A DNA stretch of 64,000 nucleotides from an uncultured bacterium (GTDB lineage: Bacteria > Pseudomonadota > Gammaproteobacteria > Burkholderiales > SG8-39). The notes beneath the pieces were generated by a model. That model was not told the origin of the DNA, ran no database searches, and was given only the letters and a program-made list of their open reading frames with translations. The number at the start of each line of letters is the position of its first letter. Within the stretch, counting starts at the first letter, position 1. Both the position numbers and the translations under genes were made by a program. This document shows positions 5,516 through 43,444 of the stretch, in pieces. The stretch is from NCBI GenBank assembly GCA_965233165.1, contig CBDDRX010000041.1, positions 232-64,231 of the forward strand. Direction: 5' to 3'.

Positions 5516-6455
5516 GCGCCGGCGCCAGGGGGGCGCTGCGCTCCTGCCAGTGGCGCAGCTTCGCGAGCAGCGCCGCATCGTGCTCGCCCCGGATCGGCCA
5601 GCGGCGGTTCCACAGGTTGAAGCGCGGGCGCTGTCCGGCGGCGTCCTGCTGCGCCGCGGCGAGCGCGGCGAGCGTGCCGACGTCGCGCCAGTACGACCGC
5701 TCCTCGTGCTCCTGCACGCCCGGAACCTGGTTGCGCGCCAGGTCGTACGCGTAGACGCGCGAGGTCGCGGCGATGCGCGGCAGCACGTCGCGGCCGAAAT
5801 CGGTCTCGCCCAGCCGGCGTCCCTCGCGCAGCACCCGCTCGAGCGTCGCCGGCTCGAACAGGTAGTTGCCCATGGACGCGTACGCGCGGCCGGGGCTGCC
5901 CGGAATGTGCGGCGCAAACCGGGGCTTCTCGCGGAACTCGCGCACCCGGCCATCCGGCGCCGTCGAGACGATGCCGAAGGACGAGGCCTGCTCGACCGGG
6001 ACCGACACGGCGGCGACGGTCGCCTGGGCATCCTGCTCGAGATGGAAGGCGACCATCTGGCGGACATCCATCCGGTACACATGGTCGGCCGCGAAGACGG
6101 CGACCAGGTCGGGCTGGTGCGCCTGCACGAGGTCGAGGTACTGGTACACCGCGTCGGCGGTGCCCTTGAAGTGCCCGCCCAGCGTGTTGGCGCGCGGCAG
6201 CAGCGTCTTGATCACGCCCTGGCCGTCGGCGAGCCAGGGTGCCCAAGCCGACTCGACGTGCGCGATCAGCGAGGCGGGCTTGTACTGCGCCAGGACGTAG
6301 ATCGTGGAGATGCGCGAGTTGACCAGATTGCTCAGCACGAAATCGATGATGCGGTAGCCGTTGGCGAACGGCAGGGCCGGCTTCGCATGCTCGGCCGTGA
6401 GCGGATGCAGGCGCGTGCCTTCACCTCCGGCCAGAACGAGAGCGACGATTTTCAT
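5445..6455 (-). CDS. glgC: glucose-1-phosphate adenylyltransferase-like, catalytic domain only (C-terminal LbH domain absent)
   Basis: 336 aa. N-terminal LAGGEGTRLHPLT, FKGTADAV and YWRDVGT align with GlgC. The ORF ends about 60 aa after WPIRG, and its tail lies antisense to the 3' end of glgA. Confidence 0.85.
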   Translation of the reverse strand: MKIVALVLAGGEGTRLHPLTAEHAKPALPFANGYRIIDFVLSNLVNSRISTIYVLAQYKPASLIAHVESAWAPWLADGQGVIKTLLPRANTLGGHFKGTADAVYQYLDLVQAHQPDLVAVFAADHVYRMDVRQMVAFHLEQDAQATVAAVSVPVEQASSFGIVSTAPDGRVREFREKPRFAPHIPGSPGRAYASMGNYLFEPATLERVLREGRRLGETDFGRDVLPRIAATSRVYAYDLARNQVPGVQEHEERSYWRDVGTLAALAAAQQDAAGQRPRFNLWNRRWPIRGEHDAALLAKLRHWQERSAPLAPALRPSPAWRASGTDLRSDERLHSS

Positions 6456-6685
6456 GAGGGCGGTGCCTTTCCTGGACGAACTTGTTTAGTCGGGGAGCTA
6501 CGTCGCGGATGTTAGGGACGGGTAGCAATCCCGACTATCGGCGGGACTTGATTCCTTGCGTAGCGACCAGCCCACCGCGCGTAGCGCGATTGCGACAGCA
6601 GAATCAAGTCGCGGCGATATCGCTGCTGCGGCGCGGCACCTAACATTTTTTCCCCCGCCTGCAGCACTCCCCCGGAGGCTCTTCC

Positions 6686-7312
6686 ATGGGCAAGAAGCAG
6701 AAATCCCTGGCCGCATCCGCGCTCCTCGCCGCCGCCGCGGCGCTGTTCGTTCTCGGAACCGGGACCGCGAGGGCGCCCGGAACGCCCCTCGCGTGCGTGC
6801 TTCCGGCGGAAGAGGCGCTGCAGGAGCCCGAAGCGCAGCCGCTGGACGCCGGCCAGCGCGCGCTGGCCGACTTCCTTGCGCGGCGCTTCCAGGTCGCCGG
6901 CGAGGCCACCGCGACGATCGTGTCTGCGGCCTACGAGGCGGCCGGCGAAGCGGGCCTCGATCCGCTGCTCGTGCTGGCGGTGATCTCGATCGAGTCGCGC
7001 TTCAACCCGCTCGCGCAAAGCGGCATGGGCGCGAAGGGCCTGATGCAGATCATTCCCCGGTTCCATCGCGACAAGCTCGCCGAGCATGGCGGCGACCATG
7101 CGGTCCTCGACCCGCAGAGCAATATCCGGGTCGGCACGCAGATCCTCCAGGAGTACATCCACCGCAAGGGCACCCTGGAGGCCGGCCTGCAGTTCTACAA
7201 CGGGGCGAGCCGCGACGCGTCCGCCCAGTACGCGCAGAAGGTCATGGCCGAGCGCCTGCGCCTGGAGGCCACGTTGCGCGCGGCGCTGCGGCGGGGCACG
7301 CATCCGGCTTAA
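6686..7312 (+). CDS. lytic transglycosylase (SLT domain), exported
   Basis: 208 aa with a signal peptide (AAAALFVLGTGTARA) and the SLT catalytic region ISIESRFNPLAQSGMGAKGLMQI. Confidence 0.8.
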   Translation: MGKKQKSLAASALLAAAAALFVLGTGTARAPGTPLACVLPAEEALQEPEAQPLDAGQRALADFLARRFQVAGEATATIVSAAYEAAGEAGLDPLLVLAVISIESRFNPLAQSGMGAKGLMQIIPRFHRDKLAEHGGDHAVLDPQSNIRVGTQILQEYIHRKGTLEAGLQFYNGASRDASAQYAQKVMAERLRLEATLRAALRRGTHPA

Positions 7313-7321
7313 GCTCGGGGG

Positions 7322-9283
7322 GTGGAAGCGCCGGCCCGTGCCATCGTTGCGCCTCATGCCGTCCGCCGCGGGCGGCCATATCCCCTTGGCGCGACCTGGG
7401 ACGGATCCGGCGTCAACTTCGCGCTGCATTCGCGGCACGCCGAGCGCGTCGAGCTGTGCCTGTTCGACGCGAAGGGCCGCCGCGAGATCGAGCGGGTGGC
7501 GCTCGCCGAGCGCACCGACTTCACCTGGCACGGCTACCTGCCGGAGGCGCGCCCCGGGCTTCTCTATGCCTATCGCGTCCATGGGCCCGCCGGCCCGCAG
7601 CACCGCTTCAATCCGCATCGCACGCTGCTCGACCCGTACGCGCGCATGGTGGCCGGCGCGGTCTCTTCCGGCGCCGGGCGCTGCGTCGTGGTGGACTCCG
7701 CCTTCAGCTGGGACGACGATCGCCCGCCGCGCGTGCCTTGGGAAGACACGCTCATCTACGAGGCGCACGCGAAGGGGCTGACCTTCCGCCATCCCGACGT
7801 GCCGGCGCAGCTGCGCGGGACCTATGCGGGCCTGGCGAGCGCGCCCGTGGTCGAGCACCTGCGGTCCCTCGGCGTCACCGCCTTGCAGCTCCTTCCCATC
7901 CAGACGTTCGTGGACGACCGGCGCCTGCTCCAGGCCGGCCTGCGCAACTACTGGGGCTACAACAGCATCGGCTTCTTCGCGCCGGACCTGCGCTACAGCG
8001 CGACCGGCACGCTCGGCGAGTTCAAGACGATGGTGAAGACGCTGCATGCCGCCGGCATCGAGCTGCTCCTCGACGTCGTGTACAACCACACCGGCGAAGG
8101 CGACCACCGCGGCCCGACGCTTTCCTTCCGCGGCATCGACAACGCCCTGTACTACCGCCTGCGCGCCGACAACCCGCAGCACTACCTCGACTGGACCGGT
8201 ACCGGGAATACGCTGGATGTCTCCCAGCCCGCGGTGCTGCAGCTCGTCCTCGACAGCCTGCGCTACTGGGTGACCGAGATGCACGTGGACGGCTTCCGCT
8301 TCGACCTTGCGACCACGCTCGCGCGCGACGCGGCCGGCCATTTCGATCCGCGCGGCGCGTTCCTGAGCGCGGTGCGGCAGGACCCGGTGCTCTCGCAGGT
8401 GAAGCTCATCGCCGAGCCCTGGGACCTCGGCCCGGGCGGCTATCGGACCGGCGGCTTCCCCGGCGGCTGGTCGGAGTGGAACGACCGGTATCGCGATACG
8501 GTGCGTGCGTACTGGAAGGGCGACGAAGGCCGGATCGGCGAGCTCGCGGCGCGCCTGTCCGGATCGCCCGACCTGTTCGAAGGCGGCGGGCGCGCGCCGT
8601 GCGCGAGCGTCAACTTCGTCACCGCGCACGACGGCTTCACGCTCGAGGACCTGGTGAGCTACGGCGCGAAGCGCAACGAGGCGAACCTCGAGGGCAACCG
8701 CGACGGATCGGACCACAACATCAGCTGGAACTGCGGCGCCGAGGGGCCGAGCGCGGATCCGGCGGTCCGGCTCCTGCGGGAGAGGATGAAGAGGAATCTG
8801 CTGGCGACGCTTTTCTTCTCGCGCGGCGTGCCGATGCTGCTTGCGGGCGACGAGCTGGGCCGCACGCAGGGCGGCAACAACAACGCGTACTGCCAGGACA
8901 ATGAGATCTCATGGCTCGACTGGGAGCTCGACGGCCCGGGCCGGGCGCTGCTGGGCTTCGCGCGCCGGCTTTCGGCGCTGCGCAGGGGCCATGCGGCATT
9001 CCGGCCCCGCAAGTACGAGCCGGACATCGTCTGGCTCACGCCGCATGGAGGGGAGATGGCCGAGGCCGACTGGAACCTGCCGTTCGCGCGCTGCCTCGGC
9101 GCGCAGCTCGGGCAGGAGCTGCTGCTCCTGCTGAACGCGCACGACGGCGATATCCCGTTCGCCTTGCCCGAAGGGGCGTGGTCGCCGGCGCTGGACACCG
9201 CGGGCGAGGCGGAGCAGATCTTCGCCGGCACCTACCTGCTGCAGTCCCGCTCGCTGGCGCTGCACGTCAGACCCAGGTCGTGA
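7322..9283 (+). CDS. glgX: glycogen debranching enzyme
   Basis: 653 aa, GTG start. GH13 motifs: YWGYN, LDVVYNHT, GFRFDLA, AEPWD, NFVTAHDGFTL. Confidence 0.9.
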   Translation: MEAPARAIVAPHAVRRGRPYPLGATWDGSGVNFALHSRHAERVELCLFDAKGRREIERVALAERTDFTWHGYLPEARPGLLYAYRVHGPAGPQHRFNPHRTLLDPYARMVAGAVSSGAGRCVVVDSAFSWDDDRPPRVPWEDTLIYEAHAKGLTFRHPDVPAQLRGTYAGLASAPVVEHLRSLGVTALQLLPIQTFVDDRRLLQAGLRNYWGYNSIGFFAPDLRYSATGTLGEFKTMVKTLHAAGIELLLDVVYNHTGEGDHRGPTLSFRGIDNALYYRLRADNPQHYLDWTGTGNTLDVSQPAVLQLVLDSLRYWVTEMHVDGFRFDLATTLARDAAGHFDPRGAFLSAVRQDPVLSQVKLIAEPWDLGPGGYRTGGFPGGWSEWNDRYRDTVRAYWKGDEGRIGELAARLSGSPDLFEGGGRAPCASVNFVTAHDGFTLEDLVSYGAKRNEANLEGNRDGSDHNISWNCGAEGPSADPAVRLLRERMKRNLLATLFFSRGVPMLLAGDELGRTQGGNNNAYCQDNEISWLDWELDGPGRALLGFARRLSALRRGHAAFRPRKYEPDIVWLTPHGGEMAEADWNLPFARCLGAQLGQELLLLLNAHDGDIPFALPEGAWSPALDTAGEAEQIFAGTYLLQSRSLALHVRPRS

Positions 9284-11810
9284 GCCCGAGCTCGAAGGGA
9301 TGCGTCAGCAGCTCGTGGCGCGGGTAGATGCGGATCCGGTAGTCGAGCTTGCCCGACAGGCCGGGCTTCAGGTCGAGGGCGAAGCGGTGCTCGTCGGCAT
9401 CGAGCGTCCCCGCCGGCGCGAGGTCGTGGCTGTGCACCTGGTCGCGCGGCTCGCGCGACAGGAGGAGCTCCACGTGCACGTCGGAAGGGGCGAGGCCGTT
9501 CAGCTTCACGGCCACCTCGACCGGAACGCTCTCGCCGTACCGGATCCGCTGGCGCGGCGCATCGAGGCGGCGCGCCAGCACGCCGGGCCAGGCGCTGCGC
9601 ACGCGCGCCTTCCATGCGGCGATGATCCGCGCCGGCTCGTAGCCTTGCTCGGCGTAGCGGTGGCACTGCCGTGAGGCGGGCAGGTAGAACCTGGAAACGT
9701 ACTCGCCGAGCATGCGCGAGGCGTCGTACTTGGGCAGCAGCGAGGCCATCGAGCGCTTCGCCATGTGCACCCACCCGGGCGAATAGCCGCCTTCCGGGCC
9801 GCGCGCGTAGTAGAGCGGGACGACCTCGTGCTGCAGGATCTCGTAGAGCGTGCGCGCTTCCTCGTGGTCGCGCCGGTGCGGGTCGAGCTCCGGCGAGGCG
9901 GGCTGGATCGCCCAGCCGTTCTCGCCGTCGTAGCCCTCGTCCCACCAGCCATCGAGGATCGACAGGTTGAGCACGCCGTTCATCCCCGCCTTCATGCCGG
10001 AAGTGCCCGAGGCCTCGAGCGGGTAGACCGGGTTGTTGAGCCAGACATCGACGCCGGAGACGAGGCGCCGCGCGATGTGCAGGTCGTAGCCCTCGATGAA
10101 CAGGATCTTGCCCTCGAACTCCTCCTGCCGCGCGATGTGCGCGAGCGTGCGGATCAGCTCCTGGCCCGGCTCATCGGCGGGATGCGCCTTGCCGGCGAAG
10201 AGGAAGAGGACCCGCCGCTCCGGGTCGCCGAGCAGGCGCCGCAGGTGGTCGAGGTTGTTGAGGAGCAGGGTCGCCCGCTTGTACGTGGCAAAGCGGCGCC
10301 CGAAGCCGATCGTGAGCACGTCCGGCTTGGCCGGATCGGCGAAGCGCAGCAGCCGCTCGAGGTGCGAGGTGCTGCCGTGGTTGCGCGCCTGCTGGTGCGC
10401 GAGCCGGTGGCGCACCATGTGGAACATGCGCGACTTCACGTCCTGGCGCACGGCCCAGAAGATGTGGTCGGGGATGGCGCGGACCTTCTCCCAGATGCCC
10501 GGGTAGCTCAGCCGGTGCATCCAGCCCACGCCGAGGTAGCGCTCCAGGACCTCGGCCCATTCGGGCGCGAGGAACGTGGTCACGTGCACGCCGTTGGTCA
10601 CGTAGCTCACCGGGTTTTCCTCCGGCGCGACCTGCGGCCAGAACTCCTTCAGCATGCGCGCCGAGACGCCGCCATGGATGCGCGAGACGCCGTTGTGGTA
10701 GCGCGAGCCGCGGATCGCGAGCGCCGTCATGTTGAAGTCGCCGCCCTGCGGCGGCCGGGCAAGGGCGGCGACGCGCTCCGCCGCGCCGAGCTCGGCGAAG
10801 CAGCTCTTCAAATACGGCAGGACGGTGTTGTCGGTGAACTGGTCATGGCCCGCCGGAACCGGGGTGTGGGTGGTGAAGACGGTGTTCGCCGCCACCGCCT
10901 CGAGGGCGCTCTCCAGGTCGAACCCGCCGGCGACGCGGGTGCGCACCCGCTCGAGGATGAGGAATGCCGCGTGGCCCTCGTTGATGTGCCACACCGTGGG
11001 CCGGATGCCCATCGCCTCGAAGGCGCGCACCCCGCCGACGCCGAGGACGATCTCCTGCTCGACGCGCGTGGTGCGATCGCCGCCATAGAGGCGATGGGTG
11101 ATGCCGCGGTCGCGCTCGTTGTTCTCGGGCAGGTCGGCGTCGAGCAGGTAGAGCCGCACGTGGCCGACCATCGCGAGCCACACCTTGACCTGCACCTTGC
11201 GGCCCGGAAAGTCGACGACGACCCGCATCTCCGAGCCGTCCTCGCGGCGCACCGGCCGGATCGGCAGGTCATCGAAGTCGGAATCGTAGTACTCGGCGCG
11301 CTGGCGGCCCTCGCCATCCACCGTCTGCACGAAATACCCCTGGCGGTACAGCAGGCCCATCGCGACGAAGGGCAGCTGGAAGTCGCTCGCCGCCTTGCAA
11401 TGGTCGCCGGCGAGGATGCCGAGGCCGCCGGAATAGGTCGGCAGGCTCTCGTGCACGCCGAACTCGGCGCAGAAGTACGCCACCACGTCCGCTTCGCGGA
11501 AGCCGCCGCCGTTCTGCTTGAAGGGCGGCTCGGCGTGGTAGGCGTCGAATGCCGAGAGCACGCGGTTCAGGCTGTCGAGGAACGCCGGATCGGCCGCCGC
11601 CTCGATCAGGCGCTGCTCGTCGACGCGCTTGAGCATGCCCTTGGGGCTGTGGCCCGTGGCGTCCCACAGGACGGGGTTGAGGCGCGCGAAGAGCGCGCGC
11701 GTCGGCCGGTCCCAGCTGTACCACAGGTTGGTCGCCAGCTCTTCAAGCCGGGCGAGGCGCTGTGGGATCCTTGGGTTGACTTCGAGGGTGTAGCGCGTAC
11801 CGGGGCGCAT
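9267..11810 (-). CDS. glgP: alpha-glucan (glycogen/maltodextrin) phosphorylase, GT35
   Basis: 847 aa. Motifs: SGGLGILAGDH and the PLP-lysine region EASGTSGMKAGMNG. Convergent 17-nt overlap with glgX. Confidence 0.92.
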   Translation of the reverse strand: MRPGTRYTLEVNPRIPQRLARLEELATNLWYSWDRPTRALFARLNPVLWDATGHSPKGMLKRVDEQRLIEAAADPAFLDSLNRVLSAFDAYHAEPPFKQNGGGFREADVVAYFCAEFGVHESLPTYSGGLGILAGDHCKAASDFQLPFVAMGLLYRQGYFVQTVDGEGRQRAEYYDSDFDDLPIRPVRREDGSEMRVVVDFPGRKVQVKVWLAMVGHVRLYLLDADLPENNERDRGITHRLYGGDRTTRVEQEIVLGVGGVRAFEAMGIRPTVWHINEGHAAFLILERVRTRVAGGFDLESALEAVAANTVFTTHTPVPAGHDQFTDNTVLPYLKSCFAELGAAERVAALARPPQGGDFNMTALAIRGSRYHNGVSRIHGGVSARMLKEFWPQVAPEENPVSYVTNGVHVTTFLAPEWAEVLERYLGVGWMHRLSYPGIWEKVRAIPDHIFWAVRQDVKSRMFHMVRHRLAHQQARNHGSTSHLERLLRFADPAKPDVLTIGFGRRFATYKRATLLLNNLDHLRRLLGDPERRVLFLFAGKAHPADEPGQELIRTLAHIARQEEFEGKILFIEGYDLHIARRLVSGVDVWLNNPVYPLEASGTSGMKAGMNGVLNLSILDGWWDEGYDGENGWAIQPASPELDPHRRDHEEARTLYEILQHEVVPLYYARGPEGGYSPGWVHMAKRSMASLLPKYDASRMLGEYVSRFYLPASRQCHRYAEQGYEPARIIAAWKARVRSAWPGVLARRLDAPRQRIRYGESVPVEVAVKLNGLAPSDVHVELLLSREPRDQVHSHDLAPAGTLDADEHRFALDLKPGLSGKLDYRIRIYPRHELLTHPFELGLTTWV

Positions 11811-16670: not shown

Positions 16671-17042
16671 CTAGTCGAGGCGCCAGGGCTCGCAGGTCCC
16701 GGAAGCCGCTCCGGAAGGCTGGCGCCGCAGCGAAGCGGCGGGTTCGTGTGCCGCCCGGTTGTCGAAATGCCAGGCGTGCTGCGCGGAAAAGCGCGTGCAG
16801 CGGAGGAGGTCGCCGCGCGTGCAGGCGGTGAGCGTGGTGACGCGCACGCTCGGCCCTTCGCCTTCGATGAAGTGGAGCTGTCCCTGCTCTTCCCTCAGCG
16901 CGACGGGCCGGCGCCCGGGCCGGCGCGAGTCGATGACTGCGCCTTCTTCCGCGCTGTGGATCTCGTAGAGCAGGACCGCCTCGGCGTTGAAATCGCAGAT
17001 CAGCTCGCCCGCGGCCAGCAGGGCGGCGGCCAGCGTGCTCAT
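16671..17042 (-). CDS. hypothetical protein, translationally coupled to selU
   Basis: 123 aa. Its ATG overlaps the selU stop (ATGA at 17039-17042). GC3-rich. No recognisable motif. Confidence 0.45.
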   Translation of the reverse strand: MSTLAAALLAAGELICDFNAEAVLLYEIHSAEEGAVIDSRRPGRRPVALREEQGQLHFIEGEGPSVRVTTLTACTRGDLLRCTRFSAQHAWHFDNRAAHEPAASLRRQPSGAASGTCEPWRLD

Positions 17043-18106
17043 GCGGCGGCGCGCTCGCGCGCGGCCAGGCGCGCGGCGATGGCAGCGAAGGCGTCCGGCG
17101 TGTCCACCGGGAGGCGCTCGGCCTCGGCGAGGGCGGGGAAGTTCCGCGTCGAGCTCTTGCGGTAGGCGGGGTCATAGTGCTCGAGGAGCAGGCGCGAGAC
17201 GAACTCGCGCCAGGCGCCGGCTTCGCCGAGCGCCTTCCATTGGGCGATCTTCTCGCGCCCGTGCAGCGCCACCAGGCAGTCGAGCTGCGCGTCGAGCGCC
17301 GCGCGGTCCTGCGTGAAATGCCGGTATTCGTCGAGGAGCAGCGTGACCCGGGTCTCCACGCCCGCCTCGAGAGCGACGCAGCGCGATGCGCGCATGCGCG
17401 AGATCAGGCCATCGGGGACCTGCAGCTGGCCGATCTTCTTCGACTCGCCTTCGACAAAGACCGTGCGCCGCGGGTCGAGCCGGGTGAGCGCGTGCAGCAG
17501 CCGGGATTCGAACATCTTCTGCGAAGGCTGCGGCCGGTCCGGAAGGTTGCCGAGGACCGAGCCGCGGTGCGCAGCGAGCCCCTCCAGGTCGAGCACCTGG
17601 GCGCCGGCCCTCGCGTGGGCGGCGAGAAGGCGGCTCTTGCCGCTGCCGGTCGGCCCGTGCACCACGGCGTAGGAGAACCGGCCGGGAATCCGGTCGAGCT
17701 CGGCGACCACCCAGCGGCGGTAGGCGCGGTAGCCGCCTTCGAGCGTCGCGGCCCCCCAGCCGATCTCCTGCAGGATGTGCGCCATCGCCCCGGAGCGCTT
17801 GCCCCCGCGCCAGCAGTAGACGAGCGGGCGCCAGTCCTTCGGCTTGTCGCGGAAGTGGCGCTCCACGTGCGCGGCGACGTTGCGCGCGACCAGCGCGCCG
17901 CCGACCTTCTTCGCCTCGAAAGCCGAGACCTGCTTGTAAAGCGTGCCGACCTCGGCGCGCTCGCTGTCGCTCAGGACCGGCGTCGACAGTGCATCCGGAA
18001 CGTGGTCTTCCGCGTATTCGGAAGGCGTGCGCGCGTCGAGGATCGCGTCGAATCCCGTAAGGATCGCGGCATCCATCGCGACCGAGTGCCTGGACGGCTT
18101 GTCCAT
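17039..18106 (-). CDS. selU: tRNA 2-selenouridine synthase
   Basis: 355 aa. The N-terminal rhodanese domain has the active-site VYCWRGGKRSG, followed by the P-loop GPTGSGKS. Confidence 0.9.
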   Translation of the reverse strand: MDKPSRHSVAMDAAILTGFDAILDARTPSEYAEDHVPDALSTPVLSDSERAEVGTLYKQVSAFEAKKVGGALVARNVAAHVERHFRDKPKDWRPLVYCWRGGKRSGAMAHILQEIGWGAATLEGGYRAYRRWVVAELDRIPGRFSYAVVHGPTGSGKSRLLAAHARAGAQVLDLEGLAAHRGSVLGNLPDRPQPSQKMFESRLLHALTRLDPRRTVFVEGESKKIGQLQVPDGLISRMRASRCVALEAGVETRVTLLLDEYRHFTQDRAALDAQLDCLVALHGREKIAQWKALGEAGAWREFVSRLLLEHYDPAYRKSSTRNFPALAEAERLPVDTPDAFAAIAARLAARERAAA

Positions 18107-18417
18107 CTGCCCGGATTTTACGCTGCTCAGTTTCCGGCTCGCGCCAGCGTCGAAGTAGCCGCCTTGACAACAGGGAGTTCCTTCGGAGAGTCTTGAACGA
18201 TGCTGATTCTTGCCCGCCTCATCTCCGCGAGCTGCCGTTCGCTCGTGTCGATGCTCGGCACGGGCTGCGCGCGCAGAGGACGAGCAGGCCGCTCCGGAAG
18301 CCCGGACGACTTCACTGCGGCCGCCCGCACGATGGTCCTGCTTTCCTCTCCCGCCTTCCGTTTCACCCCGAACCCGTCCGTTTCCTCACCCATCCCATCT
18401 GGCAGGGAGGTACGTTC

Positions 18418-19497
18418 ATGCATCGCAGATCGTTCCTGAAGGTTTCTTCGATGGCCGCCGCGGCGGCCGCGCTGCCGTGGCGCGGGGCGCTCGCCGCCCC
18501 GATCGCCGGCTGGCGCAGCTACGAAGTGGTTTCCCGCGTCGAGATCCTCAAGCCGCGCGGCGTTTCCCGCGCCTGGATCCCGCTCCCGTCGGTGGACAAC
18601 GCCGAATGGCACAAGACGCTGGGCAGCAGCTGGACCGGCAACGCGGGCCGCACGCTGGTCGCGACCGACGGCAAGTACGGCGCGCAGATGCTCTACGCGG
18701 AATGGGCGGAAGGAACGGCCAGCCCGGTCCTGGAGGTGACGAGCCGCGTCTCCACGCAGGACCGCGACATCGACGTGACCCGCGCGCGCTCCGGCGCGGA
18801 GCTCTCGGCGCCCGAGCGCGTCTTCTATACCTCGGCGACCGACTACATCCCGACCGACGGGATCGTGCGCGACACGGCGCAGAAGGCGATCAAGGGCGCG
18901 CGCAGCGAGGTCGACAAGGCGCGCGCGATCTACGAATGGGTGGTGGACAACACGTTCCGCGATCCCAAGACGCGCGGCTGCGGCTGGGGCGACATCAAGG
19001 CAATGCTCGAGACCGGGAACCTCGGCGGCAAGTGCGGCGACCTGAACGCGCTGTTCGTCGGGCTCGCGCGCTCGGTCGGCGTTCCGGCGCGCGATGTGTA
19101 CGGGCTGCGCGTCGCCCCCTCCGAGTACGGCTACAAGAGCCTCGGCGTAGGCTCGAGCAACGTGACGCGCGCGCAGCACTGCCGCGCGGAATTCTTCGCG
19201 CAGGGGATCGGCTGGGTTCCCGTCGATCCGGCGGACGTGCGCAAGGTGGTGCTCGAGGAGCCGCCGGCCAACCTGCCGCTGGGCGACCCCAAGGTGCAGG
19301 CGGCGCGCCAGCGCCTGTTCGGCAACTGGGAGATGAACTGGCTCGCCTACAACATGGGCCACGACATCAAGCTGCCCAACTCCAGCGGGCCGAAGATCCC
19401 CTATCTCATGTACATCAACGCGGAATCCGGCGGCGAGGCGCGCGACCCGCTCGACCCGGACTCGCTCAAGTACACGATCACGGCGAAGCCTGCCTGA
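18418..19497 (+). CDS. Tat-exported transglutaminase-like cysteine peptidase family protein
   Basis: ATG 18418 is preceded by GGAGG at 7-nt spacing. Twin-arginine signal MHRRSFLKVSSMAAAAAA. Cys-His-Asp core: GKCGDLNALF, HCRAEFF, VPVDPAD. Confidence 0.8.
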   Translation: MHRRSFLKVSSMAAAAAALPWRGALAAPIAGWRSYEVVSRVEILKPRGVSRAWIPLPSVDNAEWHKTLGSSWTGNAGRTLVATDGKYGAQMLYAEWAEGTASPVLEVTSRVSTQDRDIDVTRARSGAELSAPERVFYTSATDYIPTDGIVRDTAQKAIKGARSEVDKARAIYEWVVDNTFRDPKTRGCGWGDIKAMLETGNLGGKCGDLNALFVGLARSVGVPARDVYGLRVAPSEYGYKSLGVGSSNVTRAQHCRAEFFAQGIGWVPVDPADVRKVVLEEPPANLPLGDPKVQAARQRLFGNWEMNWLAYNMGHDIKLPNSSGPKIPYLMYINAESGGEARDPLDPDSLKYTITAKPA

Positions 19498-20422
19498 GCG
19501 CCGCACGGACCGCGCCGAGGAGCGCGCGGCGCTCCTCGGCCGGGGCGAACAGACGCCTGCGCCCGCGCATCGCCGCCTTCAGCGTCCGGTAGAAGGCGTG
19601 GTCGCGGCTTCGCGCCATCAGCGCGGCAAGCGCTTCGTGATCGCCGGTGCGGAAGTAGGCCGGCCAGGATGCGCCGAGCATGCCGAGGTTGCCCGACATG
19701 CGCGAGGCGAGCACCGGCACGCCGATGCGCGCGGCCTCCGCGATGACGTTCGCCCCGCCCTCCATTCTCGAGCTCACCACCAGCACATGGCTTGCGGCGA
19801 TCCACCGCAGGGCCCGCCCGTGCGGCAGGCTGCCGAGCCAGCGATAGCGCGGCTCGCGGCGCATCCACGCGCGGGCCGTCCTTTCGTGCGCCGCGTCCAG
19901 GGCGGCGCCGATGTGCACGAGCTCGATCGCGTCGTCGTTCACGAGCTCCAGGGCAAGCGCGGCGCGGAACGGATCCTTCACCTCGCGCAGATGGCCCACC
20001 ACGACGATGCGGAACCGCCCGCGCGGCGGCACGTGGCGCAGCTTCGTGTCGCTCGACTGGTAGACGACGTGCGCCTTTGCGCGCATCCCGGCCGGGAGCC
20101 GCCGGAGCGCGTCTTCCTGGAGCACGATCAGGCGGTCGGCGAGCCGCAGCGAGCGGCGCGCCTCGGCGCTGCCGGGCAGGTCGGCGTACAGGTCGGTTCC
20201 CGTCAGCGCCACGATGCGCGGGCCGGCGAACCGGACGATCGAATCGTGGCTGCGGCGCGCATGCAGCGCGAGCAATGCATCGCATTTCCCGCCCTGCCAG
20301 GAAAGGGCGACGCGGCAATCGAAGCCGGCGCCGCGCAGCATGCCCGCCCAGCGCGCCGCGGTATGGAGGTTGCCGTTGCGCGTTCCCGGGCGCGCCGGCG
20401 TGACGATCGAGATGCGCGGCAT
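19478..20422 (-). CDS. senB: SenB-like glycosyltransferase (selenosugar synthase candidate)
   Basis: 314 aa, compact GT-B-like (SSRMEGGANVIAEAARIGVPVLAS). It is divergent from and 20 nt away from the EgtB-like/SelD pair. The assignment rests mainly on context and remembered family features. Confidence 0.75.
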   Translation of the reverse strand: MPRISIVTPARPGTRNGNLHTAARWAGMLRGAGFDCRVALSWQGGKCDALLALHARRSHDSIVRFAGPRIVALTGTDLYADLPGSAEARRSLRLADRLIVLQEDALRRLPAGMRAKAHVVYQSSDTKLRHVPPRGRFRIVVVGHLREVKDPFRAALALELVNDDAIELVHIGAALDAAHERTARAWMRREPRYRWLGSLPHGRALRWIAASHVLVVSSRMEGGANVIAEAARIGVPVLASRMSGNLGMLGASWPAYFRTGDHEALAALMARSRDHAFYRTLKAAMRGRRRLFAPAEERRALLGAVRAALRQASP

Positions 20423-20442
20423 GGCTTGGATAGACTCGCGAA

Positions 20443-21495
20443 ATGTTAGCCGAAGACCTCGTCGCGAGCCGGGAATCGCTGGCCCGCGTCAGCTCGGTGA
20501 TGCGGGACGCGCGCCTGCTCGGGCCGAAGCTCGCGATCGTCAACCCGCCCCTTTGGGAGATCGGCCACGTGGCCTGGTTCCAGGAGCACTGGTGCCTTCG
20601 CGACGGGGGAAAGAAGGACTCCATCCTTCCGGGGGCGGACAAGCTCTACGATTCCGCGAAGGTTGCGCACGACGCGCGATGGGACCTGCCGCTGCCGGCG
20701 CTCGCCGACACGCAGCGCTACCTCGCGAACGTGCTCGAAGCGACGCTCGAGCGCCTGGCGCGCGAGCCGGAGAGCGAGGCGCTGCGCTACTTCGTGCGCC
20801 TCGCGACGTTCCACGAGGACATGCACGCCGAGGCGTTGCGCTACACCTGCCAGACGCTCGGCTACGAGGATGCGGCGGGAGGGGATGCGCCGGCCTTCGC
20901 GCCGGCGCAGGACCTGGCGTTCGCCGGCGGGCCGTTTATCCTCGGCGCGGTCCCGGGAAGCGCCGGGTTCGTGTTCGACAACGAGAAGTGGGCGCATCCG
21001 GTGGATCTCGCGCCCTTCCACATCGCGAGCGCGCCGGTCACGAACGCGGAATACCTTCGCTTCGTCGCGGCGGGCGGCAAGGCGCCTCGCTACTGGAGGG
21101 CGGCGGAGGGCGGCTGGCGCGAGCGCCGCTTCGACGCCTGGATCCCCCTTCGCGGCGAAGACCCCGTGCGGCACGTCGACTGGAACGAGGCGCAGGCCTA
21201 CTGCCGGTGGGCGGGGCGCCGGCTGCCCGGCGAGGCCGAATTCGAGCTCGCGTGCAGCGACGCACGGTTCCAGTGGGGCGCCTTGTGGGAATGGACCTCG
21301 AGCACCTTCGCGCCGTATCCCGGGTTCATGGCCGACCCGTACAAGGAATACTCGCAGCCCTGGTTCGGCACGCACAAGGTGCTGCGCGGCGCGAGTTTCG
21401 CCACGCCGCGGCGCCTTGCGCGGCCGACCTTCCGCAATTTCTACACCGCGGAGCGCGGCGACGTGTTCTGCGGCTTCCGCACCTGTCCGTTATAG
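20443..21495 (+). CDS. senA: EgtB/OvoA-family non-heme iron enzyme, SenA-like (selenoneine synthase candidate)
   Basis: 350 aa. DinB-type metal triad EIGHVAWFQEHW and FHEDMHAE (HX3HXE). FGE-sulfatase-like C-terminal half (DWNEAQAYCRWAGRRLPGEAEFE). Directly upstream of selD/senC. Confidence 0.78.
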   Translation: MLAEDLVASRESLARVSSVMRDARLLGPKLAIVNPPLWEIGHVAWFQEHWCLRDGGKKDSILPGADKLYDSAKVAHDARWDLPLPALADTQRYLANVLEATLERLAREPESEALRYFVRLATFHEDMHAEALRYTCQTLGYEDAAGGDAPAFAPAQDLAFAGGPFILGAVPGSAGFVFDNEKWAHPVDLAPFHIASAPVTNAEYLRFVAAGGKAPRYWRAAEGGWRERRFDAWIPLRGEDPVRHVDWNEAQAYCRWAGRRLPGEAEFELACSDARFQWGALWEWTSSTFAPYPGFMADPYKEYSQPWFGTHKVLRGASFATPRRLARPTFRNFYTAERGDVFCGFRTCPL

Positions 21496-21505
21496 GATTC
21501 GAGCC

Positions 21506-22549
21506 ATGAACGCACCCGAAAGAATCCGTCTCACCGAGTTCAGCCACGGCGGCGGCTGCGGCTGCAAGATCGCGCCCGCCGTGCTCTCCGAGATCCTCGC
21601 CGCCACGCCGATCCGCGGCCTGCCGAAAGACCTCATGGTCGGCACCGAGACCGCGGACGACGCGGCGGTTTACCGCCTGAACGACGAGCAGGCGCTCGTC
21701 GCCACCACGGACTTCTTCACGCCGATCGTCGACGACCCGTTCGATTTCGGGCGCATCGCCGCGACCAACGCCATCTCCGACATCTACGCGATGGGCGGCA
21801 CGCCGATCATGGCCCTCGCCATCGTGGGCATGCCGCTCGAGAAGCTGCCCGTGTCGGTGATCGGGAAGATCCTCCAGGGAGGCGAGTCGGTGTGCGCCGC
21901 GGCAGGGATCCCGATCGCCGGCGGCCATTCGATCGACACGCTCGAGCCGATCTACGGCCTGGTCGCGCTCGGCCTCGTTCATCCGTCGAAGGTGAAGCGA
22001 AACAGCTCCGCGAGGGCGGGCGACGTGCTCATCCTTGGCAAGCCGCTGGGCGTCGGCATCCTTTCGGCCGCGCTGAAGAAGGGCAAGCTTTCCGAGGACG
22101 GCTACCGGCGCATGGTCGAGTGGACGACGAAGCTGAACACGCCCGGCCAGGCGCTCTCGGCGATGGAAGGCGTCCATGCCCTTACCGACGTCACGGGCTT
22201 CGGGCTTGCCGGCCACCTGCTCGAGATCTGCCGCGGCTCGAAGCTCGGCGCCGAAGTGCGCTTCGACGACGTGCCGGTCATTCCCGAGGCGCTCGAATGG
22301 GTGAAGCAGGGTGTCGCGACCGGCGCTTCCGGGCGCAACTGGAACGGCTACGGCCAGGACGTCGAGCTCTCCGGCAAGGAAGAGTGGGTGCAGAAGCTCG
22401 TCACCGACCCGCAGACGAGCGGCGGCCTGCTGGTCGCCTGTTCCGCGGATGCGGAGAAAGACGTGCTGGCCACCTTCGCGAAGCAGGGCTTCCCGGCCCG
22501 CGTCATCGGCACGATGCAGGCCGGCCCGGCGAAAGTAAGGGTGACCTGA
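21506..22549 (+). CDS. selD: selenide, water dikinase (selenophosphate synthetase), Cys type
   Basis: 347 aa. N-terminal SHGGGCGCKI and AIR-synthase-like domains. It starts 10 nt after the senA stop, so it corresponds to senC of the sen pathway. Confidence 0.92.
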   Translation: MNAPERIRLTEFSHGGGCGCKIAPAVLSEILAATPIRGLPKDLMVGTETADDAAVYRLNDEQALVATTDFFTPIVDDPFDFGRIAATNAISDIYAMGGTPIMALAIVGMPLEKLPVSVIGKILQGGESVCAAAGIPIAGGHSIDTLEPIYGLVALGLVHPSKVKRNSSARAGDVLILGKPLGVGILSAALKKGKLSEDGYRRMVEWTTKLNTPGQALSAMEGVHALTDVTGFGLAGHLLEICRGSKLGAEVRFDDVPVIPEALEWVKQGVATGASGRNWNGYGQDVELSGKEEWVQKLVTDPQTSGGLLVACSADAEKDVLATFAKQGFPARVIGTMQAGPAKVRVT

Positions 22550-26345: not shown

Positions 26346-27761
26346 ATGGTCGAAACAGCACTTTTGATGGCGCTTGCCTTTCTGGTGGGCGCAGCACTCG
26401 GCGCTTCTGGACATTGGCTGTGGCGGCGAGCCGAATCTGTGAGGCTCGCGGAGGTCATTGGCGAACGAGATCGTCTTTCCAAAGCCGGCGAGTCTCTTGG
26501 CAGGCAACTTGCGCAAGAGCAGGCGCATCGAGCCACACTGGAGGAGAGGGCATCCCGAGTTCCAGCGCTTGAAGCCGAGCTTAGGAGTTTCCAAGCCTTG
26601 CGCGAGGAGCATGCGAAAGTCCTAAGCGTTGCAGAAGTAGAACGAACGCAAGGGGCGGAGAAGCTGAAGCTCCTCCTCGAAGCGAAGGACGCCCTCTCGC
26701 AGCAGTTCCAGAATCTTGCGAATCAGATCCTGGAGGAAAAGGGGCAGAAGTTTGCGCAACAGAACGTCGAGAGCCTCGGGGCCTTGCTGAAGCCGCTGAA
26801 CGATCGACTGAAGGACTTCCAGGGTAGGGTCGAGGAGACGTATGACAAGGAGTCCAAGCAGCGTTTCTCGCTGCAGTCCGAGATCGAGAAGCTGATTCAA
26901 GCGAACGCGCGAATCAGCGAGGACGCGAACAATCTGGCGGATGCCCTCAAGGGCAACGCGAAGACTCGCGGCACCTGGGGAGAAGTGGTTCTTGAGCGCG
27001 TACTGGAGTCGTCGGGTCTTACGAGGGGTCGAGAGTACGAGGTCCAGCTCAGCCTCAGAAGCGAAGGCGGAAAGACATATCAGCCCGATGTGGTGATCCA
27101 CCTGCCGGAGGACCGCCACGTCGTGGTGGACTCGAAGGTTTCCCTCGTGGCCTATGAGGCGTACTGCTCCGCCGACGACGAGGCTGCAAGGAAGGCGGAG
27201 CTCAAGAAGCACCTTCAGTCGCTCGAAACGCATGTAGAAAATCTTGCTTCCAAGAACTATCACAACCTGTCAGGAATTCGCTCGCCGGATTTCGTCCTGA
27301 TGTTTGTACCGATCGAGCCGGCGTTCATGCTTGCGGTCGGGGAAGATCACGACTTGCTCATGGAGGCCATGTCGCGCAACGTAATGCTCGTCAGCCCGAC
27401 CACGCTGCTTATTTCGCTGCGCATGATTGCCAATATCTGGCGCTATGAGTACCAGAACCGGAACGCTGAGGAGTTGGTGCGCCAGTGCGCGGCCATGTAT
27501 GACAAGTTCGTCGGTTTCGTGGCTGATCTGGAAGCCGTCGGCAAGAGTCTGGACATGGCGCAACGTACCCATGCAGACGCCCTCGCCAAGCTCACGAGCG
27601 GCAAGGGCAACCTGGTGCGTCGGGCGGAGCAAATCAGGCAACTGGGCGTAAAGCCCTCCAAGAATCTTCCCCAGTCTGTCCTCCAATCTGCAGACGACGG
27701 AGATGAGGCGACCGCCGAGCTTCGGCTGGACGAACCGCGCCTCACGAAGCCGGCCGCCTAA
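26346..27761 (+). CDS. rmuC: DNA recombination protein RmuC
   Basis: 471 aa. N-terminal TM anchor, long coiled coil, and a C-terminal nuclease-like core PDVVIHLPEDRHVVVDSKVSL. It is visibly more A/T-rich than its flanks. Confidence 0.9.
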   Translation: MVETALLMALAFLVGAALGASGHWLWRRAESVRLAEVIGERDRLSKAGESLGRQLAQEQAHRATLEERASRVPALEAELRSFQALREEHAKVLSVAEVERTQGAEKLKLLLEAKDALSQQFQNLANQILEEKGQKFAQQNVESLGALLKPLNDRLKDFQGRVEETYDKESKQRFSLQSEIEKLIQANARISEDANNLADALKGNAKTRGTWGEVVLERVLESSGLTRGREYEVQLSLRSEGGKTYQPDVVIHLPEDRHVVVDSKVSLVAYEAYCSADDEAARKAELKKHLQSLETHVENLASKNYHNLSGIRSPDFVLMFVPIEPAFMLAVGEDHDLLMEAMSRNVMLVSPTTLLISLRMIANIWRYEYQNRNAEELVRQCAAMYDKFVGFVADLEAVGKSLDMAQRTHADALAKLTSGKGNLVRRAEQIRQLGVKPSKNLPQSVLQSADDGDEATAELRLDEPRLTKPAA

Positions 27762-27898: not shown

Positions 27899-30160
27899 AT
27901 GCCCATCTCGCTTCGGTTCGTCGTTCCCCTGGCTCTCGCCCTCGCGGCCATCGCGTACGCGGTGCAGCCGCTCGTCGACCGGCTCACCTTCCAGTGGTTC
28001 GTCCGCGACCTCGACGTGCGCGGCGAGCTGATCGCGAAGACGGCGCAGGAGCCGCTCATCGAGCTCATGCGCGAGCGGCGCGTGGCGCGCGAGCGCGTGG
28101 TGCGCTACTTCGAGCGGATCCTGCAGGGCGAGCGCGTGTTCGCGCTGGGCTTCTGCGATCCGTCGGGGAAGCTCGCGTACGCGACCTCGTCCTTCCCCCG
28201 CGCGGTGAGCTGCGCGCCCTCCGCGGCCGCGGAGTCGCGCAGCATCGTCCTGGAGCTCACCGACGGCCCCCTGCACGTCTCGTTCAACCCGATCGGCGCC
28301 GACGGCGCCCACTCCGGCCAGCTGGCCGTGGTGCACGACATGAGCTTCGTGCAGCGGCGCAGCGCCGACACCAAGAAGTACATCTTCTATCTCTTCGCGG
28401 CGATCGCCACGGTCGTGGCGCTGATCACGGTGGTGATCGCGGAGATCAGCTGGCGCGGCTGGGTGGCCGGGATGCAGGTGCTGCTCAAGGGCCAGACCCT
28501 GCTGCGCTCGCCGGAGGACATCCGGAAGGGCCTGCGCAGCACCGCGCCGGAGCTGCGGCCGATCGCGCGGGACCTGCAGGCGCTGGTGCGCGACCTCGAG
28601 GCGGAGCGCCAGTCGCGCGACGAGAGCCAGACGCTCTGGGGGCCGGAGGCGCTGCGCCGCATCCTGCGCCAGGACCTCAAGGAGGACGAGGTCCTCATCG
28701 TCTCGAACCGGGAGCCCTACATCCACACGCGGCGCAAGGACAACGTGATCGAGATCCAGCGCCCGGCGAGCGGCCTGGTGACGGCGCTCGAGCCGATCGT
28801 GCGCGCCTGCTCGGGAACCTGGATCGCGCACGGCGCCGGGTCCGCGGACCGCGACACGGTCGACAAGCACGACCACGTGATGGTGCCGCCCGAGCATCCC
28901 TCCTACCGCATCCGGCGCGTCTGGCTGTCGGAGGAAGAGGAGAAGGGCTATTACTTCGGCTTCGCGAACGAGGGGCTCTGGCCGCTCTGCCACATCGCGC
29001 ACACGCGGCCCATGTTCCGCGCCGAGGACTGGGAGCACTACAAGAACGTGAACCAGCGCTTCGCCGACACGGTCGTCGACGAGGCGAGGACCGAGGACCC
29101 GATCGTGCTCGTGCAGGACTATCATTTCGCGCTCCTGCCGCGCATGGTGCGCGAGCGGCTGCCGCGCGCGACGATCATCACCTTCTGGCACATCCCCTGG
29201 CCGAACCCCGAGGCCTTCGGCATCCTGCCCTGGCGCGAGGAGGTGCTGGAGGGCATGCTCGGGTCGTCGATCCTCGGCTTCCATACGCAGTACCACTGCA
29301 ACAACTTCTTCGACACCGTCGACCGCTTCCTCGAGGCGCGGGTCGACCGCGAGACGTTCTCGATCTCGTACGGCGGCGAGGCGACCGAGGTGCGGCGCTA
29401 CCCGATCTCGATCGAATGGCCGCCGGCGCCGCTCGCGGTGCAGGCGCCGGTCGAGGAGTGCCGGCGCCGGGTGCGCGAGCGCCTCGCCCTGCGTCCGGAC
29501 GTGAAGCTCGGGATCGGCGTCGACCGGCTGGACTACACGAAGGGGATCCTGGAGCGCTTCATGGCGATCGAGCGCCTGCTCGAGCTGGAGCCGCGCTGGG
29601 TCGGGCAGTTCGCGTTCCTGCAGGTCGCGGCCCCCTCGCGCTCCTCGATCGACGAGTACCAGAACCTGGATGCGCGCGTGCGCGAGCTCGCGGCGCGCAT
29701 CAACGCGCGCTTCGGGCGGCCGGGCTACCAGCCGATCCTCCTGAGGATCGAGCACCACGACGCAGCGCAGGTGTACGAGTTCTACCGCGCCGCGGAGCTG
29801 TGCTACGTCTCGAGCCTGCACGACGGCATGAACCTGGTCGCCAAGGAGTACGTCGCCGCGCGCGACGACGAGCAGGGCGTGCTGGTGCTTTCGCAGTTCA
29901 CCGGCGCGGCGCGCGAGCTCGCCGAGGCGCTGATCGTCAACCCGTACGACATCGAGCAGTCGGCCGCCGCGATGCACCTCGCGCTGACCATGTCGCCCGA
30001 CGAGCAGCGCACGCGCATGCGCAGCATGCGCAACCTCGTCCAGGAGTTCAACGTGTTCCGCTGGGCGGGGCGCATGCTCATCGACGCCGCCCGCATGCGC
30101 CATCGCCGGCGGGTGATGTCGCGGGCGCGCGCGGCCCGGCGCAAGGCGAACGCCGCATGA
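27899..30160 (+). CDS. otsA: trehalose-6-phosphate synthase (GT20) with N-terminal two-TM sensor-like extension
   Basis: The C-terminal ~470 aa is GT20 ([39 protein letters not shown]). The N-terminal ~280 aa has TM1, a ~160-aa loop, TM2 and a helical linker. Start at ATG 27899; GTG 27827 is an alternative. Confidence 0.88.
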
Positions 30161-30930
30161 ACAGCACGCCGCCTTTCGACCCGCACTGGGCCTGGTTCCT
30201 GGACATCGACGGCACCCTGCTCGACATCGCCGCGATTCCCGCCGCGGTAAAGACCGGGCCCTCCGACACGCGCCTCGTCACGGGGCTGTACTCGGCGGCC
30301 CGCGGCGCGGTCGCGCTCATCAGCGGGCGCGCCATCCACGGCATCGACAAGCTCTTCTACCCGCTGCGCCTGCCGGCCGCCGGCCAGCACGGCATCGAGC
30401 GTCGCGATGCAAAGGGCCGCATCCACCACCATCCCTTCCCGGAGGCCGCGATGCGCCGCGCCGCCGCCGACATCCGCGCGTTCGCCGAGCGGCACCAGGG
30501 CCTCATCTTCGAGGACAAGGGCGCGAGCCTCGCGCTGCACTACCGCCTCGCACCGAACCTCGCGAGCGCGGTGCATGCGGTCATGCACAAGGCCGCGCAG
30601 CACCTGGGCGAGGGCGTCGAAGTGCAGGGCGGCAAGATGGTCGCCGAGCTCAAGCCCTCCGGCCGCGACAAGGGGATCGCCATCGAGGAGTTCATGCACG
30701 AAGCCCCCTTCAAGGGCCGCACGCCGGTCTTCCTGGGCGACGATCTCACCGACGAGGACGGCTTCCACGTCGTGAACCGCCTGGGCGGCCATTCGATCAA
30801 GATCGGCCCCGGCGTGACCTCGGCGCGCTGGCGCCTGCGCGATGCCGCCGCGGTGCGCGCGTGGCTGGCCCACGCGCTCGAGCAGAAGCCGCCGGAGGAT
30901 CGCCGCACGCTGCGCGCCCAGGCGCCCTGA
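30157..30930 (+). CDS. otsB: trehalose-6-phosphate phosphatase
   Basis: 257 aa. HAD motifs [10 protein letters not shown] and [10 protein letters not shown]. The ATG overlaps the otsA stop (ATGA). Confidence 0.88.
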
Positions 30931-36048: not shown

Positions 36049-37239
36049 ATGAGACGCGACTACCTCGTGCCGTTCATCAATCTCGGGCACCTGCTCGACC
36101 ACCTGGTCATGCTGGTGTTCCCCACCGTCGTGATCGCCCTGGCGCGCGAATGGGACCGGCCCTACTCGGAGCTCCTGCCGCTCTCGCTCGGCGGGTTCAT
36201 CGCCTTCGGCGCGTTCGCGCTGCCCGCCGGCTGGCTCGCCGACCACTGGAGCCGCTACAAGATGATGGCCGTGTTCTTCTTCGGCATCGGCCTGTCGCTC
36301 TTCCTCACCGGCTTCGCGCAGACCTCTTGGCAGATCGCCGCCGGGCTGACGCTCACCGGCATGTTCGCCGCGATCTACCACCCGGTCGGCATTGCGATGC
36401 TGGTCGCCGCGCCGAAGAACCTCGGTCGCGCGCTCGGCTGGAACGGCCTGTGGGGCAACCTGGGCCTCGCCACCGCGGCGATCGTCTCCGGCGCGCTGAT
36501 GGACCTCTGGGGCTGGCGCGCGGCGTTCTTCATCCCCGGCCTGCTCTCGGTAGCGGTCGGCGTGGGCTTCCTCGCCCTCGTCCCGGACCCCGGGCCGGTG
36601 GTGAAGAAGTCGAAGACCATCGGCCTGCACGTCGACGCGCGCACCATGACGCAGATCTTCGCCATCCTGCTCATCGCCACGGCCTGCGGCGGGATCATCT
36701 TCAACTCGACGACGGTGGCGATGCCGAAGGTGTTCGACGAGCGCCTGCGCGCGCTCACTCAGACGAGCCTCGGCATCGGCGCTCTCGTCGCGGTCGTCTA
36801 TACGGTCGCCGCCTTCGCCCAGGTGGTGATGGGCAACCTCATCGACCGCTTCGAGATGAAGCGGCTGATGATCGCGGTGGGCCTGACGCAGATCCCGCTG
36901 CTCGCCCTCGCGGCGATGCTCGACGGCTGGGCGCTGCTCGTCGTCGCGCTGTGCATGATGATGGCGATCTTCGGCCAGATCCCGCTCAACGACGCCATCG
37001 TCGGCCGCTACGTCGCGGACGAGTACCGGGCGCGCGCGCTGTCGGTACGCTACGTCGTCTCGCTGGGGGTCGCGGCGGTCGCGGTGCCGCTGATCGCCGT
37101 CCTGCATCGGACGGAGGGAGGCTTCCGGAACGTGTTCCTGGTGCTCGCCGCCCTCGCGGCGGCGGTCCTGCTATCCGCGGCGTTCTTTCCCTCGCGGGAC
37201 AAGCTCAGGCGAGCGCCGTCGGCTGCGGCAGCGACCTGA
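36049..37239 (+). CDS. MFS transporter
   Basis: 396 aa with 12 predicted TM segments and an MFS loop motif (GWLADHWSRYK). Confidence 0.8.
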   Translation: MRRDYLVPFINLGHLLDHLVMLVFPTVVIALAREWDRPYSELLPLSLGGFIAFGAFALPAGWLADHWSRYKMMAVFFFGIGLSLFLTGFAQTSWQIAAGLTLTGMFAAIYHPVGIAMLVAAPKNLGRALGWNGLWGNLGLATAAIVSGALMDLWGWRAAFFIPGLLSVAVGVGFLALVPDPGPVVKKSKTIGLHVDARTMTQIFAILLIATACGGIIFNSTTVAMPKVFDERLRALTQTSLGIGALVAVVYTVAAFAQVVMGNLIDRFEMKRLMIAVGLTQIPLLALAAMLDGWALLVVALCMMMAIFGQIPLNDAIVGRYVADEYRARALSVRYVVSLGVAAVAVPLIAVLHRTEGGFRNVFLVLAALAAAVLLSAAFFPSRDKLRRAPSAAAAT

Positions 37240-39101: not shown

Positions 39102-39151
39102 GATGTTTTCTCTGAAAAATCATAGCGCAAAGCCCGCCGGACGGCGCGCGT

Positions 39152-43434: not shown

Positions 43435-43444
43435 GGAGCTCGCC

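Follow-up and report, generated by a model that had tools for sequence, protein, structure and literature searches.

The sen pathway for selenoneine biosynthesis was published in 2022 for Variovorax paradoxus DSM 30034 and Amycolatopsis palatopharyngis, and both structures and curated hidden Markov models (HMMs) of its enzymes exist. More than 1,500 carriers of the selenoneine synthase SenA are known (bioRxiv 10.1101/2024.04.10.588772). The same work tells SenA and its relatives apart by a composite motif, which reads xNEH--HRHxHYYN(F/Y)(F/Y)R in SenA, xNEH--HRHxHYMQAYR in the ovoselenol-type enzyme OvsA and xSDH--RRHQHYYNWDR in type I EgtB (Kayrouz et al., bioRxiv 10.1101/2024.04.10.588772). 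Here, we describe a sen locus in a stretch of 64,000 nucleotides (nt) from an uncultured Burkholderiales bacterium (contig CBDDRX010000041.1 of assembly GCA_965233165.1, positions 232 to 64,231), which we call the window and in which all coordinates are counted from the first nucleotide. The locus is very probably an orthologous copy of the described pathway, with SenB, SenA and a SelD-type SenC. It consists of the following features, the last of which is a neighbor outside the sen trio.

19478 to 20422, minus strand: senB, selenosugar synthase, a GT-B Se-glycosyltransferase of 314 amino acids (from TIGR04348, PDB matches and residues)
20423 to 20442, no strand: the 20-nt intergenic region between the divergent senB and senA, which holds a TAGACT box at 20431 to 20436
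20443 to 21495, plus strand: senA, selenoneine synthase, a nonheme-iron selenoxide synthase in a short form of 350 amino acids (from NF041186, PDB matches and the composite motif)
21506 to 22549, plus strand: selD (senC), selenide, water dikinase of the Cys type, 347 amino acids (from NF002098, TIGR00476 and the alignment with 3u0o)
17039 to 18106, minus strand: mnmH (selU/ybbB), tRNA 2-selenouridine synthase (from NF008752, TIGR03167 and its rhodanese domain)

An initial annotation, made from the sequence alone, had described the three sen open reading frames with these sizes and strands and with the 10-nt gap before selD, and our analysis bears it out in each of these respects. The motifs it had quoted are all present, namely, EIGHVAWFQEHW at residues 39 to 50 and FHEDMHAE at residues 123 to 130 of SenA and SHGGGCGCKI at residues 13 to 22 of SelD, and the last of these carries a cysteine instead of selenocysteine (Sec) at position 18, aligned to Cys17 of the E. 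coli enzyme. Pfam recovered the DinB-type and sulfatase-like halves that had been seen in the 350-residue protein (DinB_2 and FGE-sulfatase), found AIRS and AIRS_C domains in SelD, and agreed with the glycosyltransferase-like label of the 314-residue protein (GT1/GT4), which also passed the SenB equivalog model. These scans were part of a survey of the 67 genes called in the window, in which three large genes that were not scanned with Pfam were named via NCBIfam. The 350 residues of SenA are the longest possible reading of its frame, with no upstream extension. The start codons of senB and senA point away from each other across 20 nt (GGCTTGGATAGACTCGCGAA), and 10 nt separate the stop codon of senA from the start codon of the codirectional selD. 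With E values of 1e-108 to 1e-163, the family matches of the locus proteins lie far beyond chance. The G+C content (GC) around the locus is about 0.70, as in the flanks and the rest of the window, GC at third codon positions (GC3) is 0.88 to 0.90 in the sen genes, and GC by codon position resembles that of other genes in the window. The locus shows no sign of being a pseudogene or a recent insertion.

The profile comparison proposed in the initial annotation placed the 314-residue protein in the SenB family: it scored 362.9 bits against the NCBIfam equivalog TIGR04348 (cut-off, 300), and the next family reached 88 bits. A search of the PDB returned only four matches at an E value below 1e-3, all of them SenB (8jjq, 8jjn, 8fbx and 8k5u), with about 208 bits and 47% identity; identity to V. 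paradoxus SenB (VpSenB) is likewise 47%. In VpSenB, K158 is catalytic, N20, T23 and E231 form the sugar triad, and H58, R61, T83, T85 and R155 line the selenophosphate pocket (PMC10891094). The alignment equates N18, T21, H54, R57, T74, T76, R146, K149 and E221 of the window protein with VpSenB N20, T23, H58, R61, T83, T85, R155, K158 and E231, so that the residues found important by mutagenesis (N20, T23, E231 and K158) are all kept. E221 lies within an EGGA motif (EGGANV; known form, EGGAxV).

The 350-residue protein is assigned to SenA by HMM cut-offs and the composite motif, not by its position in a tree. It exceeds the cut-off of the SenA equivalog NF041186 (453.1 bits against 420) and stays below those of the EgtB model TIGR03440 (242 against 360) and the OvoA N-terminal model (61 against 400). 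Its best PDB matches are V. paradoxus SenA (VpSenA; 8ryz/8k5i) at 257 bits, followed by OvsA at 203 and EgtB of Mycolicibacterium thermoresistibile at 157, consistent with the SenA identity suggested initially. In the alignment of the window protein with the PDB sequences, all 14 motif positions fit SenA (N34, E39, H42, H76, R79, H124, M127, H128, Y300, Y303, N332, F333, Y334 and R338); they comprise the iron triad, the selenosugar contacts, the catalytic tyrosine and the hercynine contacts. The resulting string, NEH-HR-HMH-YY-NFY-R, is the commonest SenA motif and occurs in 65 of the 81 sequences of an alignment that combines 77 homologues from the loci with the window protein and three PDB references. 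The OvsA motif does not fit, with YYNFYR in place of YMQAYR, nor does that of type I EgtB, with N, E, H76, M, F and Y at the discriminating positions. Also kept are N63, E68, R120 and Y363 of VpSenA, whose importance was established by mutagenesis. The nearest genome match is a Burkholderiales metagenome-assembled genome (MAG) at 71% identity, and NCBI labels homologues at 68 to 71% identity "selenoneine synthase SenA."

SenA relatives were scanned in one genome per species and their neighbors mapped by tblastn, which gave 80 loci for counting arrangements (labeled L001 and so on). The association of senA with senB at its divergent side and with selD downstream recurs in related loci, with senA-selD gaps of 6 to 39 nt, and 64 of the 80 have senB and senA in divergent orientation. 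Family membership, the conservation of functional residues and synteny are observed directly. We infer the chemistry from the V. paradoxus enzymes. SelD (SenC) would phosphorylate selenide to selenophosphate, onto which SenB would transfer a sugar, preferably N-acetylglucosamine (GlcNAc), from its uridine diphosphate (UDP)-activated form; Lys149 of SenB would then cleave the Se-P bond to leave a 1-seleno-sugar. SenA, with Fe(II) held by His42, His124 and His128, O2 and the catalytic Tyr300, would join the selenosugar to C2 of hercynine, and the selenoxide would eliminate spontaneously to give selenoneine. Hercynine would come from an EgtD encoded outside the 64-kb contig. A selenosugar- or selenoneine-type metabolite is thus the predicted function of the locus, as the initial annotation had it, and the equivalog HMMs, the PDB matches and the 14-residue motif support this prediction.

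Several observations weigh against this assignment. Production of selenoneine by the organism is a prediction from its genes. Pfam scans of the 67 called genes gave no Methyltransf_33 match, in agreement with the initial annotation that the window lacks egtD, and a supply of hercynine is presumed. (A crude regular-expression search of the window for EgtD motifs, superseded by these scans, had given no match either.) The window protein shares 49% identity with VpSenA and has 350 residues compared with 416; missing from it are an N-terminal extension (about 29 residues), the loop of 12 residues that follows WFQEWW and about 15 interdomain residues. The view of selD covers the 64-kb window, and the genome may have a second selD elsewhere. 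Moreover, in a simple neighbor-joining (NJ) tree with 200 bootstraps, OvsA renders SenA paraphyletic: only 59 of the 200 replicates unite the window protein with VpSenA in a clade without OvsA, and 20 set EgtB plus OvsA apart from the rest, leaving no clean SenA clade that excludes OvsA.

The short SenA looks minimal rather than defective, because the 12-residue loop is also absent from OvsA and EgtB and the N-terminal extension of VpSenA is itself an addition relative to EgtB (Heliyon structure paper). As for the tree, the phylogeny suggested in the initial annotation placed the protein within a clade of 16 short-form Burkholderiales sequences of 350 to 376 residues (196 of 200 bootstraps), and failed to separate SenA cleanly from OvsA. 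Since EgtB and OvsA are each represented by a single reference, it cannot decide the subfamily, and the distinction between SenA and OvsA therefore rests on the motif and the HMMs. The paraphyly agrees with published work, in which OvsA is regarded as a recent branch off the SenA family.

The lack of egtD leaves room for other end products. In one scenario, SelD and SenB make 1-seleno-GlcNAc for another use, and SenA is inactive or idle in an organism without hercynine. The unverified hercynine supply would fit, and the discoverers of the sen pathway suggest roles for selenosugars in their own right. However, the metal triad, the catalytic tyrosine and the substrate residues of SenA are intact, the GC of senA by codon position resembles that of the other genes, and its close linkage to senB and selD is seen in many genomes, so that we consider this scenario quite improbable.

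A different acceptor is the second possibility: in a pathway of the ovoselenol type (ovs) or another variant, the selenosugar would be joined to histidine or another molecule, which would explain the missing egtD. It is in keeping with OvsA being the second-best PDB match (203 bits) and nesting among the SenA sequences in the NJ tree, and ovs clusters also hold senB and senC according to the literature. The decisive positions are those that distinguish hercynine from histidine as the acceptor. Here the window protein has Y303, N332 and F333, where OvsA has M, Q and A, and OvsA converted to Y/N/F regains the hercynine contacts. These three residues make hercynine synthesized elsewhere the most likely acceptor, as judged from the protein sequence. 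The initial annotation had left two alternatives, an acceptor encoded elsewhere or a different one; the former is retained and the latter disfavored. Furthermore, the protein passes the SenA equivalog cut-off, no OvsM-like methyltransferase is found among the 67 window genes, and OvsA is reported almost exclusively from aquatic gammaproteobacteria, whereas this locus belongs to a Burkholderiales clade. Published sen producers keep egtD in a separate egt cluster, and its position outside the sen cluster is the rule; hence, its absence from the window is unremarkable. Taken together, we regard an ovs-type or similar pathway as very improbable.

The idea of an ordinary sulfur pathway, with the 350-residue protein as an EgtB making ergothioneine, an unrelated glycosyltransferase and a SelD that serves MnmH only, can draw on close homologues named "gamma-glutamyl hercynylcysteine S-oxide synthase" or EgtB in JGI and some NCBI records and on selD and mnmH being a classical pair, but is extremely improbable in view of the EgtB score far below its cut-off, the replacement of the thiol-binding Ser, Asp, Arg87 and Asp416 of EgtB by N34, E39, H76 and Y334, a glycosyltransferase that passes the SenB equivalog cut-off and matches only SenB structures, the divergent pairing of senB with senA in most loci, and the lack of egtA, egtC, egtD and egtE nearby. 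No second DinB/FGE protein was found by the Pfam scans among the called genes of the window.

The assignment of the locus to the sen pathway raises the question of whom its SelD serves. The protein is a clear member of its family (542 bits against NF002098, cut-off 299; 438 against TIGR00476), and in the alignment with E. coli SelD, its best match among solved structures (3u0o; 337 bits), Cys18 and Lys21 of its GGGCGCK segment fall on Cys17 and Lys20. This upholds the SelD-type identity given in the initial annotation, which had not mentioned that mnmH adjoins the sen block. mnmH lies two genes to the left of senB, 1.4 kb away, and makes the block home to a second consumer of selenophosphate; its product scores 486 bits against NF008752 (cut-off, 266) and 367 against TIGR03167, has a rhodanese domain and shows CWRGGKRS and GPTGSGKS motifs. 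The order MoxR, HDAC, mnmH, transglutaminase-like gene (in some), divergent senB and senA, selD, ybbA, ybbP is found again in the nearest Burkholderiales MAGs (L001 to L008 and L011), and mnmH is syntenic with senB, senA and selD in 12 related loci. In L015 to L018, the divergent senB/senA pair sits just upstream of mnmH and selD, and three of these (L015, L017 and L018) have mnmH and selD back to back, with the senB/senA pair beside them and 22 to 34 nt between the divergent start codons. Conversely, 19 more distant loci, each flanked by 5 kb or more on both sides, have the senB/senA pair without any selD nearby (among them L013, L014, L020, L023, L026, L027, L029 to L031, L037, L042 and L046). 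The codirectional selD-senB arrangement, the one behind the discovery of the pathway, is found in only seven loci. Because of the synteny with mnmH and the many senB/senA loci without selD, the "SenC" of this locus is probably the general housekeeping SelD of the cell, serving both MnmH and SenB; the dedicated SenC implied by the initial annotation is less likely.

The genes between mnmH and senB, and next to mnmH, vary among relatives. A transglutaminase-like protein with a Tat signal (18418 to 19497, plus strand) converges on senB with a 20-nt 3' overlap and has a counterpart at that position in only some relatives (L003, L008, L011 and L016). A 123-residue open reading frame without a family match (16671 to 17042, minus strand) overlaps the mnmH stop codon by 4 nt; only L001 has a counterpart, which is 51% identical. 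Scans of the called genes found no Sec machinery in the window. The formate dehydrogenase of the window was considered as a selenoprotein, which would have implied the use of Sec, and was rejected, as it has a cysteine at the Sec position.

Putative transcription signals are compatible with separate transcription of selD. A TAGGAT box (21493 to 21498) lies 7 nt upstream of selD and overlaps the senA stop codon, and TAGAAT or TAAAAT precedes selD in L002 to L005, L008, L015, L017 and L018, whether senA or mnmH is the upstream gene. The preservation of a -10-like box regardless of the gene upstream suggests that selD keeps its own promoter, and a general SelD expressed in this way would also feed the neighboring MnmH. 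The intergenic TAGACT box, placed 6 nt ahead of the senA ATG, is the sole copy of this hexamer in the 64-kb window. Of 81 loci, 20 have TAGACT or TATAGT 6 to 10 nt upstream of the in-frame start of senA, with diverging flanks. We read the box in the window as a putative -10 element of a putatively leaderless senA mRNA. mnmH has a TAAAAT box 8 nt upstream (18115 to 18120). That such leaderless-type boxes are specific to selenium genes was considered and rejected, since TAnnnT hexamers precede the start codon by 5 to 10 nt in 13 of the 67 window genes; besides mnmH, senA and selD, these include a divergent pair at about 1838/1859 and the genes starting at 4082, 7322, 15732, 36049 and 59831. The boxes thus point to leaderless mRNAs as a common, genome-wide habit of the organism. 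The first codons of senA (20443 to 20451; ATGTTAGCC) are kept in relatives, and their reverse complement (GGCTAACAT) places a TAACAT box 20 nt ahead of the start of senB, which may form part of an overlapping divergent promoter. A generic sigma-70 scan found no full two-hexamer promoter at the locus, and terminators were at chance level. Rfam gave nothing at the sen locus and a single, unrelated match in the window, and a tRNA scan of the window found none.

From the gene order and these boxes, we tentatively propose that the sen genes of this Burkholderiales lineage do not form a cassette of three genes that stands by itself, but that a divergent senB/senA module was inserted into an ancestral selenouridine locus of divergent mnmH and selD. 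The outcome would be a small "selenium island" in which one SelD provides for both tRNA modification and selenoneine, selD is expressed from a conserved promoter of its own within the 3' end of senA, and the mnmH, senA and selD mRNAs are leaderless. We rate the chances of this scenario as just short of even.

Beyond the selenium genes, the window has several other features. The single Rfam match is a chrB-b RNA motif (51172 to 51222, minus strand; 52.4 bits, gathering score 36.5), and a rhodanese/ChrB_C protein and a ChrA chromate transporter are encoded downstream of it. An arsenosugar-biosynthesis pair (58462 to 59816, plus strand) consists of an AhpD-like, peroxidase-like protein (TIGR04169, 166 bits) and the radical S-adenosylmethionine (seleno)protein ArsS (TIGR04167, 408 bits; cut-off, 300). 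A large molybdenum/tungsten block (36049 to 48462 and 55113 to 62214) holds FdhD, MoaA, DUF3305/DUF3306 proteins, a polyferredoxin, a TorD-like chaperone, the Cys-type formate dehydrogenase FdhA (ARICHSTTV; best PDB match, 9vap) with beta and gamma subunits, an ABC transporter with a PBP-like binding protein, MobA/MobB, two copies of MoeA, MoaD and MoaE. There is also a glycogen metabolism cluster (4082 to 11810; glgA, glgC, glgX and an alpha-glucan phosphorylase) and an OtsA/OtsB trehalose pair (27899 to 30930), whose OtsA has an unusual N-terminal extension of about 260 residues. GC drops to 0.61 between 26001 and 28000, compared with about 0.70 elsewhere, over rmuC (26346 to 27761).

The locus is an instance of a known system and leaves the knowledge of selenium metabolism unchanged. 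It adds one uncultured Burkholderiales lineage to the known SenA carriers. What the present analysis adds is modest, namely, a shared SelD, linkage of the locus with mnmH, a short form of SenA and promoters of the leaderless type, and those of these points that concern function are predictions. The compact SenA of 350 residues, with every functional residue in place, could be a convenient minimal enzyme for biochemical work. In addition, selD is often unlinked to the senB/senA pair, and genome mining that requires the three-gene cassette would miss likely producers.

Compared with the senABC clusters of V. paradoxus DSM 30034 and A. palatopharyngis (Kayrouz and Seyedsayamdost 2022, bioRxiv 10.1101/2022.04.13.486033), the locus has the same three enzyme families, each above its cut-off. 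The active-site residues of SenA and SenB are those of the V. paradoxus enzymes (SenA, 8ryz/8k5i; SenB, 8jjq/8fbx), and egtD likewise lies outside the cluster. V. paradoxus belongs to the same class as the host of the locus (Betaproteobacteria), yet identity is only 47 to 49%. The differences are the short SenA, which lacks the N-terminal helix and two loops, a senB that is divergent from senA-selD instead of overlapping selD as in the discovery arrangement, the adjoining mnmH and a SelD that looks general. The ovs cluster (OvsA, OvsM, SenB and SenC; Kayrouz et al. 2024, bioRxiv 10.1101/2024.04.10.588772; PDB 8u41) contains the same selenosugar cassette of SenB and SelD, and OvsA is a related nonheme-iron selenoxide synthase with identical iron- and selenosugar-binding residues. 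It differs in its acceptor residues, in its N-pi-methyltransferase, which has no counterpart in the window, and in its taxon. Type I EgtB of M. thermoresistibile (4x8b/4x8d) shares the DinB and FGE-sulfatase fold, the three-histidine iron site, the catalytic tyrosine and the Asn/aromatic hercynine contacts with the window SenA. However, it is only 36% identical, its thiol-binding residues S, D, R87 and D416 are changed to N, E, H and Y, and its HMM cut-off is not reached. Finally, the proteobacterial selD-mnmH (selU/ybbB) pair is part of the same conserved block; the two genes are directly adjacent in L015, L017 and L018, whereas in the window the divergent senB and senA sit between them.

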